DNA from: an uncultured Nitrospiraceae bacterium
GTDB taxonomy: Bacteria; Nitrospirota; Thermodesulfovibrionia; Thermodesulfovibrionales; Dissulfurispiraceae
NCBI GenBank assembly: GCA_963727805.1
Contig: CAVSHF010000003.1
Span: forward strand, 1,696,001 to 1,760,000
Direction: 5' to 3'
DNA length: 64,000 nucleotides
Shown: piece after piece, positions 10,041 through 40,926 of the stretch
How the letters are laid out: every line of letters starts with the position of its first letter
Position numbering within the stretch: position 1 is the stretch's first letter
Notes under the pieces: model-generated
Databases searched by the model: none
Seen by the model: the letters and a program-made list of their open reading frames with translations, nothing else
What the model was told of the DNA's origin: nothing
Translations under genes and position numbers: made by a program

Positions 10041-10140
10041 ACTTTATTTCCGATTGAGTTTATTTTAACATTAACTGCGTCAAGAATGCAATAAATATTC
10101 TTTAAAATTATTTGACGAACAAGGGGGGAGGGAAGTTAAA

Positions 10141-13060
<2,920 letters not shown>

Positions 13061-13145
13061 TTACTTTACTTCTTTCTCTTCCCCTTGTTTGTCAAAGATC
13101 AAATTCAAAGACTCAAAGCATTCGCTTTGAGTCTGGAATTTTAAT

Positions 13146-13221
13146 TGGTGGAGGTGAACGGGATCGAACCGATGACCCCCTGCTTGCAAAGCAGGTGCTC
13201 TCCCAGCTGAGCTACACCCCC
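13146..13221 (-). tRNA. tRNA-Ala(TGC)
   Basis: 76-nt cloverleaf, anticodon loop TTTGCAA, encoded CCA. Confidence 0.97.
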
Positions 13222-13227
13222 ATAACA

Positions 13228-13300
13228 TGGGCCTGATTGGAATCGAACCAATCACCTCACCCTTATCAGGGGTGCGCTCTACCAACTGAGCTACAGGCCC
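13228..13300 (-). tRNA. tRNA-Ile(GAT), CCA not encoded
   Basis: 73-nt cloverleaf GGGCCTG...CAGGCCCA, anticodon loop CTGATAA. Confidence 0.97.
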
Positions 13301-13376
13301 GAGGCCCGCTATTTTACGACCTCCATCTATCTAAAAAAGTGCGTGGTAAAAGAATCCTGACAAGCCGTTATCCTTA

Positions 13377-14897
<1,521 letters not shown>

Positions 14898-14960
14898 TTT
14901 TTCTGGCAAATGTAAAACTATTGAAGCTTGCAGTCACTTTACCACGCACTTAATTAGCTG

Positions 14961-15011
14961 ATTATCAAAGAACGAGTAGACATCATAATCAAAATAGATG
15001 ACACGTGTCAA
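14961..15011 (-). promoter_or_regulatory. rRNA promoter and boxA-like element
   Basis: TTGACA (15011-15006)-N18-TATGAT, then CGTTCTTTGATAA; a second boxA-like GATCTTTGACAA lies before 23S. Confidence 0.6.
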
Positions 15012-20138: not shown

Positions 20139-20891
20139 TTACTCGGAGTGGTCGCGATGCGTCAAGTTTTGCTTCTTTTTCCGCATCGACTCTCCCTTCA
20201 GCGTGATCTTGTGCGCAGCGTGAATGATCCTATCGAGTATGGCATCGGCCAGCGTCGGTTCTCCGATCAACTCAAACCACTTTGAAACAGGATACTGGCT
20301 CGTTATTAGCGTTGATCTGAGTCCGTGCCGATCCTCTATGACTTCCAGGAAGTCCCTTCTCTCTGCCTCATTCATTGAAGATAAGCCCCAATCGTCGATA
20401 ACGAGAAGCTCTGTCTTGGCTATCTTGTTCAAGAGTTTCAGGTAACTGCCGTCTCCTCTCGCTATTGCGAGCTCCCTGAAGAGCCGTGGATAGCGGTAGT
20501 AGATTGCCGTCATTCCTTCACGGCAGGCTTTTTGTGCAAATGCTTCAGCGAGGTAGCTCTTGCCAATGCCCGTAGGCCCCGTGATGATAACGTTGTGGTG
20601 GTTCTTGATCCACTCGCAGTTTGCCAAAGAGAGAATAAGAGACTTGTCGAGACCCCTTGAGTGCCTGTAGTCAACGTCCTCAATAGTCGCTTGCCTTTTT
20701 AGTTTCGCCGCCTTGAGCCTTATGGCGAGTTTTCTGTTTTCCCGGTACAGCCACTCTCTTTCTACGATCATGGCGAAGCGGTCATCAAAGGACAGCTCCG
20801 TCATGGAGGGCTGCTCACGTTGCTCATTGAAGCCCGTAACCATTCCGCTCAACTTCATATGGTAGAGCTTCTCTACTGTCTGGTTGTTCAT
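20139..20891 (-). CDS. istB: IS21 helper ATPase IstB
   Basis: GPTGIGKSYLA, LLVIDDWG, ADAILDRI, LKGESMR. Confidence 0.96.
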   Translation of the reverse strand: MNNQTVEKLYHMKLSGMVTGFNEQREQPSMTELSFDDRFAMIVEREWLYRENRKLAIRLKAAKLKRQATIEDVDYRHSRGLDKSLILSLANCEWIKNHHNVIITGPTGIGKSYLAEAFAQKACREGMTAIYYRYPRLFRELAIARGDGSYLKLLNKIAKTELLVIDDWGLSSMNEAERRDFLEVIEDRHGLRSTLITSQYPVSKWFELIGEPTLADAILDRIIHAAHKITLKGESMRKKKQNLTHRDHSE

Positions 20892-20908
20892 AAACCTCCT
20901 TGTGTTGT

Positions 20909-22453
20909 TCAGTTGTAGTAATCGCTGCCCCTGATGTTGTCGTGATAGACGATAGCTGTCACCTCCTTGTCTTCGGTTATCGGTAGCTGGTCAATGCCAT
21001 GCTCAAGGATTGAGTTAACGCTTCTGTATGAGAACGACCTGATAAGGAGTGCCCTTTGAGCTGCGGCCTCAAGCCGCTCGGCAGAGTATCGTTTGCCAAG
21101 TCTCATGATTCCGAGGCATGAGCGGTATCCCTGTTCGGGATGCGGCCTGGCGAGCATGATCTGTTCAAGCAGTTCTGCAGTATGCGGGCCTACTGTACTT
21201 GCAGCCCAATGGATGATCCTCGATGGCGACCACTCAAGATAACGCTGATGGGACTTGGGTCTATGCTCTGCGATCGTCGTGAAGCCTCCCTTCTGGAAGC
21301 TTCTTTGATGCAGGGCTACTCGCCTGGATTTGAATAGAATCTCTACTGTATTCATAGTCATCCTGACGTCAACCTGCTTTCTAACAAGTTGATAAGGAAC
21401 GCTATAGCAGTGACCTTCGACCTCGATGTGATGGTCGATGTTGACGGTGGCTTTCTTCCACTGGGCATATTGGTATCGTTCCAGTGGAAGCGGTCTCAAT
21501 GCCGGCTTGTCGATCGCCTCAAACATCTCGCGTCTGCATCCGGGCAGCTTTTTGAAGGGACGATTGTTGAGTCGCTCAAGGAGCTCTCGGATTGCTTCAT
21601 TCAACTCGCGCAGGCTGAAGAAGGTTCGGTTTCTAAGGGCCGCAAGTATCCATCGAGTAACAACGAGCACGGCTGATTCGCCCTTGGCTTTGTCCTTTGG
21701 CTTTGCTGCTCTGGCAGGGATGATGACTGTGCCATAATGGGCGGAGAACTCTTGGTATGTGGCGTTCAGTTCCGGCTCGTATCGACAGGCCCTAGTCACT
21801 GCAGCCTTGAGATTGTCAGGCACCATAATCATAGGGACCCCACCTATAAACTCCAGGGCGTTTATATTGCAGCTGATCCAGGACGGGATGTCTTGACGCA
21901 GCACCGCTTCGGCATAAGTATAGTTGCTGGCACCAAGTACTGAGACGAAGATCTGGGCTTCGTAAACTTCCGTCGTCAGGGGATTGATGATGGGGATGGT
22001 TTTGCCCGCGAAGTCCAGGAAGAGCTTTTCGCCTGCACGATGAACCTGTCGCATGCTGACTTCAACGGTCTCGGCCCAGCGCCGATAATGCTCGCAGAAC
22101 TGAGTATATTGATACCCGTCGGGGTACTTCTCTTTGTACTCCTGCCATAGGAGATAGAGCGTTACGCCCTTCTTCCTCAGTTCCCTGTGGAGTTCATCCA
22201 TTGCCGGAAGTGGCCGGACTGTATCCCGGGCAACAGATTCCTTGCCGAACAGCAATTGCTCAAGTCCGGTGTCGTCGAGATCAGAGGGCAGCGGCCAGGT
22301 GATCGCCGCCTGTTCCGCCTTCTCAAGATACTTTACGACGGTGCTGTGCGAAACCTTCACACAGCGGGCAATCTGCCGCTTGGGTAGCTTCAGGTCGAAG
22401 TGTAGTCTTAATATCTCTCTCGTCTTTTGCATGGTTATGGTCGGGGTGGACAT
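20909..22453 (-). CDS. istA: IS21 DDE transposase IstA
   Basis: N-terminal HTH; FLDFAG, VPDNLK, KDKAKGE, YSVPY; ATG at 22453 after GGAGG. Confidence 0.96.
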   Translation of the reverse strand: MSTPTITMQKTREILRLHFDLKLPKRQIARCVKVSHSTVVKYLEKAEQAAITWPLPSDLDDTGLEQLLFGKESVARDTVRPLPAMDELHRELRKKGVTLYLLWQEYKEKYPDGYQYTQFCEHYRRWAETVEVSMRQVHRAGEKLFLDFAGKTIPIINPLTTEVYEAQIFVSVLGASNYTYAEAVLRQDIPSWISCNINALEFIGGVPMIMVPDNLKAAVTRACRYEPELNATYQEFSAHYGTVIIPARAAKPKDKAKGESAVLVVTRWILAALRNRTFFSLRELNEAIRELLERLNNRPFKKLPGCRREMFEAIDKPALRPLPLERYQYAQWKKATVNIDHHIEVEGHCYSVPYQLVRKQVDVRMTMNTVEILFKSRRVALHQRSFQKGGFTTIAEHRPKSHQRYLEWSPSRIIHWAASTVGPHTAELLEQIMLARPHPEQGYRSCLGIMRLGKRYSAERLEAAAQRALLIRSFSYRSVNSILEHGIDQLPITEDKEVTAIVYHDNIRGSDYYN

Positions 22454-22902
22454 TGTGCCTCCTTGATGAATGGTCAAGAAGAAACAATGACTTATAACCC
22501 CCTGCTATATCCAGCTAAGACGACGCTCTCGTCAGCTCCTATATGACCTCTCGTTTCGGACTACGACCAAAAGTGGTCGCGCTCAGTCCGAAATGGGTGG
22601 TCGCGATACTCCGAAACAGGTGGTCGCGATGGACCGAAATGACTGGTCGCGATGCTCCGAAATACGCACAATACAAGAATTGGCTTCATATGCAACAGAT
22701 AGTATTCCTTTTAAATGCACTATTTCGTGACGTTGGATGTCTCCGCAGTTCCATAGTCCCTGTATCGTATGCATTTTTAGATAGGTTCTACCCAAATTCT
22801 AATATAGGATGATTCGAATATTTGTCGCCCAATTTGTGATGCGCTAATCGGATTTAGTTTTATGATGATTGAATCGTACAGCAGCATTCAGCGGAGTGTT
22901 TA

Positions 22903-31334: not shown

Positions 31335-33938
31335 TCAGTGGGCTGCAATCATTAAATTCCCCAACTCGTTGACTATGCCGAGTGTTCCCGAGTACCCGAT
31401 CGTCACCCTTGCCGCAATCCCCAGGAGTTTATAGACCGGAAACCCTGCATGATACAAGGGGATCTTCAACCTCTTCGCCGTCTCCTGGGCGTGCGAGTTA
31501 GATATTAAGATATCTATGCCGTCTCCGACAGACTGCAGATCACCTACAATCACCTCGTCAGCAATGAGATGTACTGCAGATGGAACAGAATAAGGAATCA
31601 CCGCTTGTTTCACCACCACACCCGCTTCATCGAGCATCCTTGAAAGTGCTATAGACAGATCGGGTTCCAGCGCAAGGCACGCCCTTTTGCCACCGAGATA
31701 GAAATGGGCGTCTCGCATACCATCGATAAGGATGCTCCTCTTCCGCTGATATTTCCCAGGCATCGGCCTGCCGCTCAACATAGAGAGTGCCTCCATGAAC
31801 GAATCGGTGTCCCGCATTCCGATGAGACCTCTGAAAACCCGGTATTCCATACCAAATTGCTCCTTCAGTTTTATGGATGGAAGCTCCATTGAAGCGCCTA
31901 TTGCGATGGTAAATTCTGAATTGGCCGCTACCCTCAAGTCGTCGACAGTCGTTCCCCCAATGGCCAATGCCGATACCCCTTTTCTGCTGCCGTCAAGGGC
32001 AGCGAGATCAGGAATTATAATCGGCCTCAGGCCGAAGGACTCGATCATCTCCCGAAGTTCGGTGAAATCCGCAGGCGTGAGGTGAGAGCCCGCCAGAACA
32101 TTGACCTGTCCGTTTTCCAGGTGAGTCTTTTCACTCTTATTAATCGATGCAACAAGGGCCTCGACCGCCTTGGCGTATCCGGTTTCCAACCCCCCTGCAT
32201 AATCGGGGGTGGAAACATGAACAATTACTGTGTCATGCGTTCCATCGAGCATCTTGAGGGTGCCCGGCAGATCATCTCCCTTTGCCTCTGAGAGCCCTGT
32301 CGTGAGAATGCCTATGACATCCGGAGAATTATTTCCGATCAGACCCTCGACAGCACTGACGGCGTTCTCCTCGCTGCCCATTACCACATTTTCGACAAAA
32401 AGTTTCGAACTCACCATCGCAACGGGCTCGCGGAAATGGGCGCTCAGCAATACCTTTCCGAGGAAGTTACATCCTTGGGCGCCATGGATTACCGGCACGG
32501 CACGGTCAATACCCTGGAACGCCATTGCAGCGCCAATCGCCTGGGAATGCTTCAACGGATTAATGAGCACGTCACTCGTCAGCCTTTTAACTGCTGCCTC
32601 CTGAGCAGGTGTATTGCTATGCTCGCCCGTGACTCTTGTTTTCTCATAGAACCTTATGGCGTTGCTCAAATCATCAGCGATATTGACGAGCCCTTCGTAG
32701 CCCGCATACGGTCGGTGCCTCTCCTGGTTGACGTCGATGAAAGGATATCCTTCTTTAACCCCGAGATACTTATTCCTGCCGCCCGCTACGAGCATATCGG
32801 CATTATGTTTCTGCAGCAGCGTGAGAAGGTTTTTCGGCGTAACGTCCTCGACGAGAGGCGCGTCAGGGCCGAGTATCGCTTTCATCTTTTCCTCATCCTC
32901 GAAGGTGCTCTTCTTAGTCCCCACGGCAACGACCTCGATGCCGAGGTCAAGGAGTGCCGAGATGAATGACCAGCTCTTTACGCCGCCGGTATAGAGCACA
33001 GCCCTTTTCCCCCGCAGGTGTCGGTACGGCTTCAATCTTTCTTTGAGACTGAGTTCCTCCTTTGCAATGACCTCTTCAATTCTATCCGCCACATCGGACG
33101 CCGCATAGTGCATCATGAATTTTTCACCTATGGCCCGCAAAGACTTGGACATCTCGGTTTTGCCAAAAAAAGATACCTCAGCGTAAGGGATGCCATACCT
33201 CTTCTCCATCTCTTTCGCAACGTTGATCAGAGCGCGACTGCAGACCATGACATTAAGCCTTGCGCGATGGGCATAAGTAATCTCTTCGAAAGTCGAGTCG
33301 CCCGTAATCCTCGAAAGCACCCTGATACCGGCCTTTTTGAGCACCGGTTCAACGAGCCAGAGATCCCCGGCGATGTTATATTCTCCGATTAGATTGATAT
33401 CGTATTCCGAAACATCCTCAGCCTCGCCGGTACCGATCACGTGCTCCAGGAGCACCTCTCCCGCAATCCGGTTGCCCAGGTTTTTAGGTCCCACAAAGCC
33501 GGGAGCATTCACCGGGATAACCCGTATGCCGAGTTCGCCCTCGGCCTTTTTGCAAACGGCTTCAATGTTTTCACCGATCAAGCCGCTTACGCATGTTGCA
33601 TGAACGAATATCGCCTTCGGATTTACGGCATCGTTTATCTTAATGATGGCACGATAGAGTTTCTCTTCCGACCCGTAGATAATGTCGAGTTCCTGCATAT
33701 CGGTGGTAAATCCCCATTTATGAAGATCACCCTTCGACGACAGGGTCCCCCTTCCTTCCCACGAATTGCCGCAGCAAGCGATAGGTCCATGGACGATGTG
33801 AGCCGCATCGGCGATGGGCTGAAGCACAATCATCGCTCCATCAAAAGCGCATGACTCTCCACCCCGTGCCCGACAGAGCTTTTCTCTCTGTTCGTGCTCG
33901 CAGCCGCTATTGAGCAATTTGTCCACATTCGCAAACAT
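31335..33938 (-). CDS. nifEN: Fused NifEN scaffold
   Basis: NifE half (ESCAFDGA, HGPIAC, YTGGVKSWS, NQER) continues without a stop into the NifN half (NPLKHSQAIGA, HGAQGC, HFREP). Confidence 0.95.
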   Translation of the reverse strand: MFANVDKLLNSGCEHEQREKLCRARGGESCAFDGAMIVLQPIADAAHIVHGPIACCGNSWEGRGTLSSKGDLHKWGFTTDMQELDIIYGSEEKLYRAIIKINDAVNPKAIFVHATCVSGLIGENIEAVCKKAEGELGIRVIPVNAPGFVGPKNLGNRIAGEVLLEHVIGTGEAEDVSEYDINLIGEYNIAGDLWLVEPVLKKAGIRVLSRITGDSTFEEITYAHRARLNVMVCSRALINVAKEMEKRYGIPYAEVSFFGKTEMSKSLRAIGEKFMMHYAASDVADRIEEVIAKEELSLKERLKPYRHLRGKRAVLYTGGVKSWSFISALLDLGIEVVAVGTKKSTFEDEEKMKAILGPDAPLVEDVTPKNLLTLLQKHNADMLVAGGRNKYLGVKEGYPFIDVNQERHRPYAGYEGLVNIADDLSNAIRFYEKTRVTGEHSNTPAQEAAVKRLTSDVLINPLKHSQAIGAAMAFQGIDRAVPVIHGAQGCNFLGKVLLSAHFREPVAMVSSKLFVENVVMGSEENAVSAVEGLIGNNSPDVIGILTTGLSEAKGDDLPGTLKMLDGTHDTVIVHVSTPDYAGGLETGYAKAVEALVASINKSEKTHLENGQVNVLAGSHLTPADFTELREMIESFGLRPIIIPDLAALDGSRKGVSALAIGGTTVDDLRVAANSEFTIAIGASMELPSIKLKEQFGMEYRVFRGLIGMRDTDSFMEALSMLSGRPMPGKYQRKRSILIDGMRDAHFYLGGKRACLALEPDLSIALSRMLDEAGVVVKQAVIPYSVPSAVHLIADEVIVGDLQSVGDGIDILISNSHAQETAKRLKIPLYHAGFPVYKLLGIAARVTIGYSGTLGIVNELGNLMIAAH

Positions 33939-37114: not shown

Positions 37115-37981
<867 letters not shown>

Positions 37982-37998
37982 TTACTGATCTAAAATTG

Positions 37999-38033
37999 AG
38001 CAAGAGGCATGCCATGCTTATAAGTAATTGATA
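37999..38033 (-). promoter_or_regulatory. sigma54 promoter of nifH with IHF site
   Basis: TGGC-atgcctc-TTGCT (38014-37999); TATCAAttacTTA (38033-38021) fits WATCAANNNNTTR. Confidence 0.85.
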
Positions 38034-38469
38034 TATTGGCCATTAGTCGACATCTTGGCCTTTTTGGGATATTCCTCTATATTTCATTATTGTAATATTT
38101 ACTACTTTTTTGTACATATATTGGCCAAAATTATTATCTGTTAGTCTCTCTTCCCATCACTACAAGTGGCAGTGAATGCCAAATCTATCACAAGCGTTTC
38201 GGATGGACGAATCGTTGAGACCAAGGGCGGGTTTGACTAAATAAGAATGTTGACCATTGGAATATACAACGGAACGGATACTCCTGTGCTGACAAATAGG
38301 TTTTAAAGTCCCTTTAAATGAGATGAGTTATCGCTTAACGATAACGCAAAGATTTATGTGGTAATCTGTTTTAGAATGAAGAAGAATCATTCCCAATGCG
38401 CTATGTGGTGCTGATTTCAGATAGGGTGTCCTATTACGCTCGCCTCGAAACCTGCTATAATCACTTGAA

Positions 38470-39963
38470 ATGAAGCACACACCGTCAAATCAAGAACTCT
38501 ATCATGAAATATTCGGTTCCATCCTAGATAGAATCGAGATGACACCATTCTTATTATCGCGTGCTAGAAATTATGATGTGGCCATCAACCAAGCTTCCAA
38601 GATGATGGGCAACCGAGGGTTTGATACTTTTGGCAGCACCGATTTGCGAGAGAGTGAAAAACAGAGGGCTCAGAAGTATATTGAACAGGTTTATAATTAT
38701 TTTCTTGACTGGATGTTTCCTTTTTGCAGGAATCAACTCGCAAAGCTCTCTGCCTTGAATTCCAGCAACAGCAGTCACTACAAGCATTGCCTGCGGAGCA
38801 TCGACACAACGCAAAAGATTTTGAAGAGCACGGAATTTCGAAGGTTACTCAATGAGGATCCTCGACATCTCTTTCTTATTGCATCATCAAGAAAATATCC
38901 TCATGTTTTTTATGGGTACCAGGGAAGAAATATGAAAGTTCCAGCTGAATGGCAGCCAATAGCCTGTTCCATTCTTAAGATGGGACACCTGATCAAATCA
39001 ATTGAAGAGGACAGCCAGGATATTAACGATTATGCTCAGTTGGGTGTATTTCTGGAAAGACAGGGACAAAGCCTTGATGACTTATACAATTACGACTGGG
39101 AAAATCCGGTACATCTTCCGGATAGTGAATACGCACAAAGAGCATTTGTCAAGATATCCACTTTTTTTCATAAGCTGAAAGAGTCGATGATGTCCGATGC
39201 AAAAAAAGGCTGTTTGGTTTTCAATAGCGGTGACGGCGTTGAAGTTGACATAGCCGAGATTAAAGCCAGGTTGAAGAGTCCGGAAAGTATGTTTACCAAA
39301 TTGGGGAAGAATGTAGAAGGAGAGGTTTACGATATAAGGGATATCCTTGCAATCACTTTTATTTTGAGGAGCAGGGATGACACGCTAATGCTTTTTCATG
39401 CATTACAGAAGAGAGGGGTCATACTACAGGAAAATACCGTTTCTCATTCAATAACCCAGACGCTCTTTGATAGCCCGAAAGATATGATGGAAGCGATTCG
39501 AAGACTTGTGATCAGCCTTTCACACAGCGAGGGCAAAGATAAGGTACCGGAGGGAAAAGAGCTGCTTTCCAACGCGATAAAATTCTATGAGGCTCTTAAT
39601 GTTAATGCTGCTAAGAATGTATATTCGTCTTCAGGCCATAAAAAGTTTCAGTGTAAAATAACTTTCTCCCTACCAATTCACCGCGCAACTGAAACAAATG
39701 AGATCATGATTCCAGGAACACCCTCATATTCAAATAGAGATCAGATCCGTAAAAAAACTCAACAGCATACGCTCAGTGTAGAACTGCGTATATCAGATGA
39801 GCAAAGCTGGTACGCATCTGAACAAAAGGGAGACTCGCACCATGATGCTTACAAATTCCGTCAGCTCGTCTCTGTGATGAATAGGGTCTTCAAAAATAAC
39901 TTCCATTTACCAGAACAGAGCTTTAAGCAATTGAGGGAAGACCAGAGAACCCTCTTCCCCTGA
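38470..39963 (+). CDS. Hypothetical protein with a divergent RelA/SpoT-synthetase-like nucleotidyltransferase domain
   Basis: RLKSPESMFTKL, IRDILAI, SSGHKKFQ, VELRIS, SEQKGDSHHDAYK in RSH order. Confidence 0.65.
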   Translation: MKHTPSNQELYHEIFGSILDRIEMTPFLLSRARNYDVAINQASKMMGNRGFDTFGSTDLRESEKQRAQKYIEQVYNYFLDWMFPFCRNQLAKLSALNSSNSSHYKHCLRSIDTTQKILKSTEFRRLLNEDPRHLFLIASSRKYPHVFYGYQGRNMKVPAEWQPIACSILKMGHLIKSIEEDSQDINDYAQLGVFLERQGQSLDDLYNYDWENPVHLPDSEYAQRAFVKISTFFHKLKESMMSDAKKGCLVFNSGDGVEVDIAEIKARLKSPESMFTKLGKNVEGEVYDIRDILAITFILRSRDDTLMLFHALQKRGVILQENTVSHSITQTLFDSPKDMMEAIRRLVISLSHSEGKDKVPEGKELLSNAIKFYEALNVNAAKNVYSSSGHKKFQCKITFSLPIHRATETNEIMIPGTPSYSNRDQIRKKTQQHTLSVELRISDEQSWYASEQKGDSHHDAYKFRQLVSVMNRVFKNNFHLPEQSFKQLREDQRTLFP

Positions 39964-40365: not shown

Positions 40366-40926
40366 TCACTCATTACCTGCCATGATCTTCCTGAAACATT
40401 CCGAGGTGCGGATAGTATGGTATGTCTTTGAGGTCTTGATGTAATTCCAGTTGTTATAGCCCTTCTCTATTGCTTTTTTCAACCATCGGCACGACTCCTC
40501 GGTATCCATTTTTGCCGCAAAGAGTTCAGCCATGCTATTCAGAGCGTAAATATTATTGGGGCTCATCTCAAGGGCTTTTCTAATATCTTTTTCAGCCTGG
40601 TCATAACAACCCATCAGGATATAATGGAAGCCCCTGTTGTTATATGCCATATCCTTGTTCGGATTCAATTCGATGGCCTTGTTGTAATCGGCGAGTGCTT
40701 TATCGTAGCGGCCGATCTTCTGATAGGTATTGCCCCGGTTGATGTAGGCGAGCGTAAAGTCGGGCCGCAATTCAATGGCCCTGTCGTAATCGGCGATGGC
40801 TAACTCGCGATGTCCCCGTTTTTCATATTCATTGCCACGGTTATTATAGGCACGGTAATCCTGCGGATTGGTCTTAATCATCTTACTGTAATAGGCTATC
40901 GGGTCACGCTTTGCCAAATTGTCCAA
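40366..40926 (-). CDS. Tetratricopeptide repeat protein
   Basis: Repeated AYNNRG...AIADY..AIEL.P. Confidence 0.9.
   Translation of the reverse strand: MDNLAKRDPIAYYSKMIKTNPQDYRAYNNRGNEYEKRGHRELAIADYDRAIELRPDFTLAYINRGNTYQKIGRYDKALADYNKAIELNPNKDMAYNNRGFHYILMGCYDQAEKDIRKALEMSPNNIYALNSMAELFAAKMDTEESCRWLKKAIEKGYNNWNYIKTSKTYHTIRTSECFRKIMAGNE

Follow-up and report, generated by a model that had tools for sequence, protein, structure and literature searches.

A conserved RelA/SpoT-type synthetase variant with a rebuilt acceptor pocket, encoded divergently from nifH in an uncultured Nitrospiraceae bacterium

The known products of RelA/SpoT-type (RSH) enzymes are (p)ppGpp, (pp)pApp and modified tRNA, and most of the non-guanine enzymes described so far are toxins paired with antitoxins. 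The systems closest to the protein considered here are the stand-alone synthetases RelP (SAS2) and RelQ (SAS1), the toxSAS enzymes FaRel2 and CapRel, the Apk1/Tas1 and Apk2 enzymes, and the TIGR04552 and TIGR04562 families. In the available portion of PMC11782079, the FaRel2 donor site comprises R64, K66, S70, K74 and R77, D90 holds Mg, E145 contacts adenosine, and Y128 and R95 hold the acceptor base; a Tyr-to-Phe change at the acceptor Tyr site impairs the enzyme. According to the accessible sections of PMC12226406, (p)ppApp synthetases are distinguished from those that make (p)ppGpp by RYT for AVR at syn2, GxN for SxH at syn3 (the His of SxH being the guanosine-recognising site) and YH for IR at syn4, and swapping such motifs abolished enzyme activity and did not switch specificity. 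Insertions in M. xanthus MXAN_4858, a TIGR04552 protein, resemble gliding-motility mutants in the accessible text of a 2026 preprint, and the family also appears in a Bdellovibrio mutation table in the part of that source available. A link of TIGR04552 to RSH is absent from the full-text literature that names the family, as far as the available extracts extend, and TIGR04562 is not named in the full-text literature searched, subscription journals lying outside both searches; nothing was found in the full-text literature that brings RSH, nitrogen fixation and SAS together. An RSH survey assigns three RSHs to M. xanthus and one each to T. yellowstonii and Ca. Magnetobacterium casensis, TIGR04552 occurring neither in the survey nor in its supplement as far as these were covered (PMC7229694), and the part of PMC10083569 that was covered contains no further synthetase signature.

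Here, a gene encoding a stand-alone, divergent RSH synthetase-like protein, designated P0001, was examined. The gene lies in a 64,000-nucleotide stretch of contig CAVSHF010000003.1 (hereafter the window, to which all unprefixed positions refer), where it is separated from the divergently transcribed nifH by a spacer of 512 bp (Table 1). The host genome is 100% complete and its relatives are Thermodesulfovibrionales (Nitrospirota). Elsewhere in the window, nifE and nifN are fused in a single 867-aa ORF (31335-33938), frames of similar length being found across the order, and a convergent gene encoding a TPR protein with a TPR_END_plus domain (40366-40926, minus strand) is not among the recurrent neighbours of P0001 homologues. 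Two ORFs at 20142-22477 (minus strand), ~2 kb from the modA end of the nif cluster, presumably represent an IS21-type istA/istB pair, which they resemble, and the region at ~10100-15000 is assumed to hold an rRNA operon.

Table 1. Features of the nifH-P0001 region, with positions in the window
Feature	Position	Strand	Remarks
nifH, head of the nifHDK-EN-X-PII cluster	37115-37957	-	Context; no functional link to P0001 implied
Sigma-54 (-24/-12) consensus site facing nifH	38000-38014	-	10/11 consensus positions
Extended -10-like box, TG-C-TATAAT	38453-38461	+	Ends 8 nt before the ATG of the P0001 gene
Gene for stand-alone divergent RSH synthetase-like protein P0001	38470-39963	+	Open frame, 497 aa
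N-terminal helical domain, ~aa 1-180	38470-39009	+	Conserved NRGFD and DPRHLFL motifs; no confident fold match
Synthetase-like domain, ~aa 181-497	39010-39960	+	Donor site R267/K269/S273/K277; Mg ligands D291/E438
Rewired acceptor side in synthetase-like domain			T296/H390/Q394/R440/S442
Extras in synthetase-like domain			Helical insertion ~aa 320-385; extended hairpin ~aa 407-427

The original prediction, made from the DNA letters, had recognised a series of degenerate RSH synthetase motifs in this frame, and the frame is real, with all of the quoted motifs present in RSH order: R267-L-K269-S-x-x-S273-x-x-x-K277, D291-ILAIT296, G389-H390-KKFQ394, E438-L-R440-I-S442 and E451-x-x-G454-DSH-H458-DA-Y461-K. 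Pfam RelA_SpoT (PF04607) matches residues 267-318 at E 0.015 and 16 bits, under the gathering cut-off of 27, and the same model matches 48/54 aligned homologues at E<=0.1, the best at 1.3e-5. The NCBIfam models TIGR04552 (E 1.3e-19, 70.7 bits against a cut-off of 125) and TIGR04562 (E 2.6e-19, 69.7 bits against a cut-off of 140) both match residues 215-475. Since these matches are joined by that of the fold search described below, the motif series is beyond chance. As had been predicted, Pfam families corresponding to HD, TGS and ACT domains, and also to ZFD, have no match in P0001 or among 54 family members; a longer, fused form of the protein was not found among 4802 candidates (weak evidence).

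An AlphaFold2 model of P0001, calculated from 54 sequences (pLDDT 88.9, pTM 0.86), was compared with 48,161 chains using VIA. Ranks 1-8 are all occupied by RSH synthetases, with matches spanning residues 180-497; the best are RelP (6fgk; Z 8.9, rmsd 3.6, 162 residues aligned), 8acu (Z 8.8) and 5dec (Z 8.2), whereas CapRel (Z 5.3) and Tas1 (Z 4.6) both match less well than RelP and RelQ. Similarly, all of the matches listed by Foldseek are RSH enzymes, RelP being first at E 4.6e-3 and none reaching E<=0.001, and sequence searches of the PDB with P0001 returned chance-level matches only. The structural scores are thus moderate (Z below 9) yet consistent with the motifs, and P0001 is predicted to have the pol-beta-like synthetase fold of RelA/SpoT proteins, the point on which the prediction had been staked beforehand. 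RelP and RelQ (6fgk, 6ewz, 5dec; Z 8.1-8.9, 162-173 residues aligned) share with P0001 the predicted fold, the RxKxxxSxxxK motif, the catalytic Asp and Glu, and a stand-alone form lacking HD, TGS and ACT domains. However, P0001 is 497 aa in length as opposed to ~200, has an additional N-terminal helical domain and two insertions, and is only 14-17% identical to them.

An unknown helical N-terminus of ~250 aa had also been proposed. The part of this that stands is the absence of a structural match, since the N-terminal 184 residues modelled alone gave no confident hit; the length is revised to ~180, the synthetase matches covering 180-497. Parts of the domain align with the N-terminus of TIGR04552. 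Identity with the HPr-binding alpha-domain of PTS Enzyme I was considered and rejected: the best scores (Z 6.7/6.2/5.4, rmsd ~4) are typical for helical bundles, Foldseek found nothing, Atlas gave only 0.81, and neither HPr nor EI is encoded in the complete genome.

Conservation of the active site was counted in 204 dereplicated homologues (from 254). The donor motif RxKxxxSxxxK and the Mg-ligand Asp and Glu are present in 204/204, and R267, K269, S273, K277, D291, K392, Q394, E438, R440, E451, H458 and Y461 are all invariant, with K280 conserved in 196/204. By motif spacing, and with respect to FaRel2 as given in the available portion of its description, R64/K66/S70/K74/R77/D90/E145 correspond to R267/K269/S273/K277/K280/D291/E438. 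This invariance is partly expected, because 111/497 columns are at least 99% conserved in the close family. For the same reason, alignment with distant relatives provides a stronger test than the set of 204, and here K269, S273, K277, D291, E438, E451, G454, H458 and Y461 are common to P0001, a relative of 34% identity, two TIGR04552 proteins and the host's own Rel.

The acceptor side is equally fixed, at different residues: T296 in 203/204, H390 in 201/204, Q394 and R440 in all, and S442 in 200/204. The replacements are His for the acceptor-base Tyr, Thr for the Arg at D+5, Gln for the His of SxH, ExR for ExQ and Ser for the Arg that follows, the mapping of the G-loop (H390/Q394) being taken from sequence alignment to TIGR04552, as MAFFT misplaced Rel there. 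The three substitutions that the original prediction had named, at the Arg after the catalytic Asp, the GY Tyr and the ExQ Gln, are therefore real and family-wide. The set of residues that serves the guanine side in RelP and RelQ (G-loop Tyr, SxH, ExQxR and D+5 Arg) is absent from P0001.

One reading of these data is that P0001 is catalytically dead and acts as a nucleotide-binding sensor or scaffold. Two residues that contact the adenine or acceptor are gone (T296 and H390, in the positions of FaRel2 R95 and Y128), at a site where, according to the accessible part of PMC11782079, a Tyr-to-Phe change is already harmful, and P0001 is carried without an antitoxin. Against this, every triphosphate-binding residue and both metal ligands are unchanged in 204/204 and kept in the distant relatives, and inactivity appears improbable. 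It is also unlikely, if somewhat easier to entertain, that P0001 does make (p)ppGpp/pGpp, as an atypical synthetase whose changes are compensatory, with R440, for example, standing in for the Arg that is missing at position 296 and H390 stacking against guanine. In favour of this, the enzymes that match best in structure, RelP, RelQ and Rel, all make (p)ppGpp, the C-terminal E-x-x-G-x-x-H-H-x-x-Y-K resembles that of long Rel proteins, and a T/R pair stands where TIGR04552 has R/Q, which may represent a paired swap. However, the stacking Tyr and the SxH His, the latter assigned to guanosine recognition in the available text of PMC12226406, are both changed in almost all 204 homologues, and a complete, ordinary Rel is already encoded in the genome.

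The original prediction of a non-GTP acceptor is thus favoured, by inference from the replaced acceptor-side residues. Given that the ATP-handling residues are intact and the second-substrate pocket is rebuilt, P0001 would probably place pyrophosphate on a non-guanine acceptor, and a stand-alone pyrophosphokinase of this kind is, in our estimation, about an even prospect. In such a mechanism the intact donor site would bind ATP-Mg and pyrophosphate would pass from ATP to the acceptor, most likely ADP/ATP, with (p)ppApp as the product, or a 3'-terminal adenosine. An adenosine-containing acceptor is the best single guess, albeit a doubtful one. P0001 has AIT, KFQ and IS at syn2, syn3 and syn4, deviating from the guanine-type motifs at all three positions where the (p)ppApp enzymes do so in the accessible sections of PMC12226406; like Apk1/Tas1 and Apk2, it has Thr in place of the syn2 Arg and an amide in place of the syn3 His, and the Arg of syn4 is gone. 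By the same sections, it differs from them in lacking the Arg of RYT (Ala294 is found there) and the base-stacking G-loop Tyr, leaving only half of the Apk signature, as well as in lacking a PAAR/MuF fusion and an immunity gene, and in its weaker fold match. Since motif swaps inactivate such enzymes without a switch in specificity, at least in the part of that study available, the acceptor of P0001 is not readable from sequence.

The toxSAS enzymes FaRel2 and CapRel resemble P0001 in having donor residues that correspond one to one and a helical extension of the N-terminus close to the active site, but differ in the residues that hold the acceptor adenine, in the presence of an antitoxin and a bicistronic layout, and in that no defence, phage or plasmid link was found for P0001; PADLOC returned no match for it. 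The N-terminal helical domain and the insertions may instead gate the pyrophosphokinase in cis, and a cell could therefore carry it without an antitoxin.

Homologues of P0001 numbered 678 of 7527 candidates. Family members are 53-88% identical over three phyla, genome loci in Nitrospirota, Myxococcota and Methylococcales being at 59-76% identity, and two more distant relatives share 34% and 28% identity with P0001. The suspected kinship with TIGR04552 was borne out by a homologous C-terminal half (E ~1e-19), and the likeness extends to N-terminal motifs and a C-terminal GxxxHxxYKxRQ. TIGR04552 proteins such as MXAN_4858 nonetheless retain the D+5 Arg, the G-loop Tyr and ExQ, have SRK where P0001 has RLK, and are ~130 aa shorter. 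Three Myxococcota genomes encode both a true TIGR04552 protein (330-340 bits) and a P0001-family protein (53-56 bits); with both genes in the same genomes, P0001, which scores under both cut-offs, is by profile comparison a paralogue apart from TIGR04552/TIGR04562. In G205 the two genes lie ~31 kb apart on one contig (C9:22377-23372 and C9:54340-55068).

Carriage is patchy, with the gene found in 26/201 genomes of the host's own order and 9/301 of one Myxococcota class; strong matches were obtained in 7/201 Methylococcales genomes, an eighth at E 1e-4 being left out of the count. A quick tree of 57 rows divides the Myxococcota copies between two groups, one within Nitrospirota and the other within Methylococcales, and the Methylococcales copies are also nested among Nitrospirota. 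This split, nested arrangement indicates that the family has been dispersed by horizontal transfer. In its genome the P0001 gene is AT-rich, with a GC3 of 0.44 and a GC content of 0.42; of 1489 long ORFs, only 2.6% have a GC content as low. Copies of the family were not found on viral contigs or plasmids. One copy, in a Myxococcota genome that is nif-positive (G494:C77:16968-17325; L094/L096), is fragmentary, contains an internal TGA and is likely to be a pseudogene. In metatranscriptomes, pieces of related genes fall on the ORF in 4/4 RNA runs, but the shares were 0.06-0.08 and contigs are no measure of transcription or its level.

A second long RSH-like protein (L205; G000:C5:748684-750738, minus strand), of more than 685 aa, has an intact HD motif and a degenerate-looking synthetase region. 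Within the order, close relatives occur in only 4/200 genomes, each of which belongs to another family, and from this restricted spread it is likely to be a transferred hydrolase-only RSH. A role for L205 as the partner hydrolase of P0001 was rejected, as it is present in 0/25 other carriers.

At 132 homologous loci, which form 43 clusters at 82% identity after four redundant or fragmentary ones had been left out, the flanks were inspected over up to 6 kb; only 58 loci have at least 2 kb on both sides. No neighbour family occurs in more than 4/43 clusters, and those four represent one Myxococcota clade. There is thus no antitoxin candidate, in keeping with the original prediction that no obvious one lies beside the gene. 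The absence of a conserved partner gene counts also against a further possibility, which we consider rather unlikely, namely that P0001 is a nucleotidyltransferase or pyrophosphotransferase acting on a protein, possibly a nitrogen-control protein, or small molecule recruited by the N-domain. The pol-beta-like transferases GlnD and GlnE control nitrogen metabolism and provide a precedent, large insertions lie next to a remodelled acceptor side, and carriers in two lineages are enriched in nif (see below). Conversely, RxKxxxSxxxK is the RSH pyrophosphate-donor signature, and the hint of an EI-like N-domain is set in a genome without the corresponding partners.

The position of the gene invites the suggestion that P0001 belongs to the nif regulon as a dedicated component, the spacer serving to co-regulate its gene and nifH, and nif linkage across genomes had been proposed as a check of a tie to nitrogen or energy status. 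Nif genes are present in the flanks of 0/132 loci (many flanks being short), the gene lies on the contig of the best nif match in 0/20 other nif-positive carriers of the order (many contigs being short), and a P0001-family gene is upstream of nifH in 0/12 relatives, of which 8 carry it elsewhere; the gene in that place varies, this comparison being read from ORF starts with two contigs short. Conserved nif adjacency was accordingly rejected: adjacency is confined to this genome, and the position of the P0001 gene beside nifH is a local insertion. More generally, amt/PII/NifA-like or nasA/nirB genes lie near 7/132 loci, or ~two or three events, a count that leaves out two nasA matches of 22% identity (L167 and L168). 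A rough expectation from random placement in the host's own genome is 4.4, with P(>=6)=0.28, and general nitrogen-gene adjacency was likewise rejected. Within one Thermodesulfovibrionia lineage (L008:8001-16112, L010 and L201) a mini-gene for a NifA-like DNA-binding protein is found downstream of the gene, and in L008 and L201 a porin-like gene and amt/PII genes come next. In four Methylococcales loci (L016, L104, L106 and L009) it abuts a convergent nasA(-nirB) nitrate/nitrite assimilation operon, probably a single ancestral arrangement.

The promoters do not suggest co-regulation either. The one strong sigma-54 site of the spacer points to nifH, none scoring at least 7 was found on the plus strand of the spacer, and sigma-54-like sites occur in 3/113 homologous loci against 1.3 expected, and a site of this kind precedes the gene in L008, where it heads an amt cluster; sigma-54 control of the P0001 gene was thus rejected. 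The -10-like box is only 8 nt from the ATG and no Shine-Dalgarno-like sequence precedes it, indicating that the mRNA is likely to be leaderless and transcribed from a sigma-70 promoter. An exact TATAAT occurs within 60 nt upstream in 20/113 homologous loci, not dereplicated, as opposed to 2.4 expected, and in L111 and L186 it is likewise close, 5-6 nt before the start.

What remains is a looser association at the level of genomes. In Thermodesulfovibrionales, where nif presence was scored as a nifD model match with nifE/EN-only matches counted, nif is found in 21/26 carriers as opposed to 73/175 non-carriers (Fisher p 2e-4), and within the four carrier families in 20/25 as opposed to 30/59 (CMH p 0.022); carriers of this order tend to have larger genomes, for which these statistics are uncorrected. 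In the Myxococcota class the figures are 8/9 and 9/292, and in the family of G203 they are 8/10 and 7/79. Carriers and nif-positive genomes of that family stand in one listing block, and if this block is one clade, as it may be, the contrast inside it is only ~8/10 against 7/13. Methylococcales show no enrichment (4/7 carriers against 88/194). Since kin are not independent, the p values overstate the association. It is real at lineage level, and shared anoxic habitat and transfer networks fit as well as function does. Of the predicted nitrogen tie, a loose diazotroph association holds in two of the three lineages compared, with clade and lifestyle as confounders, and a dedicated link by position or promoter is not supported. 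With the family also absent from most diazotrophs, membership of the nif regulon is very improbable, despite the divergent arrangement with nifH and the frequency of nif among carriers.

P0001 is a real, conserved and unstudied variant of the RSH synthetases with a rebuilt acceptor pocket. As a pyrophosphokinase with a non-guanine acceptor it would provide an extra nucleotide signal beside ordinary Rel in anaerobic, often nitrogen-fixing bacteria. A bolder version, which we regard as a long shot, is that the family constitutes an unrecognised, non-toxin RSH class, whose product is a novel nucleotide signal, or else a novel pyrophosphoryl modification, made with an acceptor outside the range of known RSH enzymes, and that it spread horizontally among anaerobic nitrogen fixers of several phyla and tunes their energy-costly nitrogen metabolism. 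The conserved core, the rebuilt pocket and the habit of travelling alone would together suggest an RSH product that is neither toxic nor guanine-based, or a new acceptor. P0001 also offers a biochemical hypothesis for its sister families TIGR04552 and TIGR04562, which are treated as uncharacterised in the available portions of the papers naming them.
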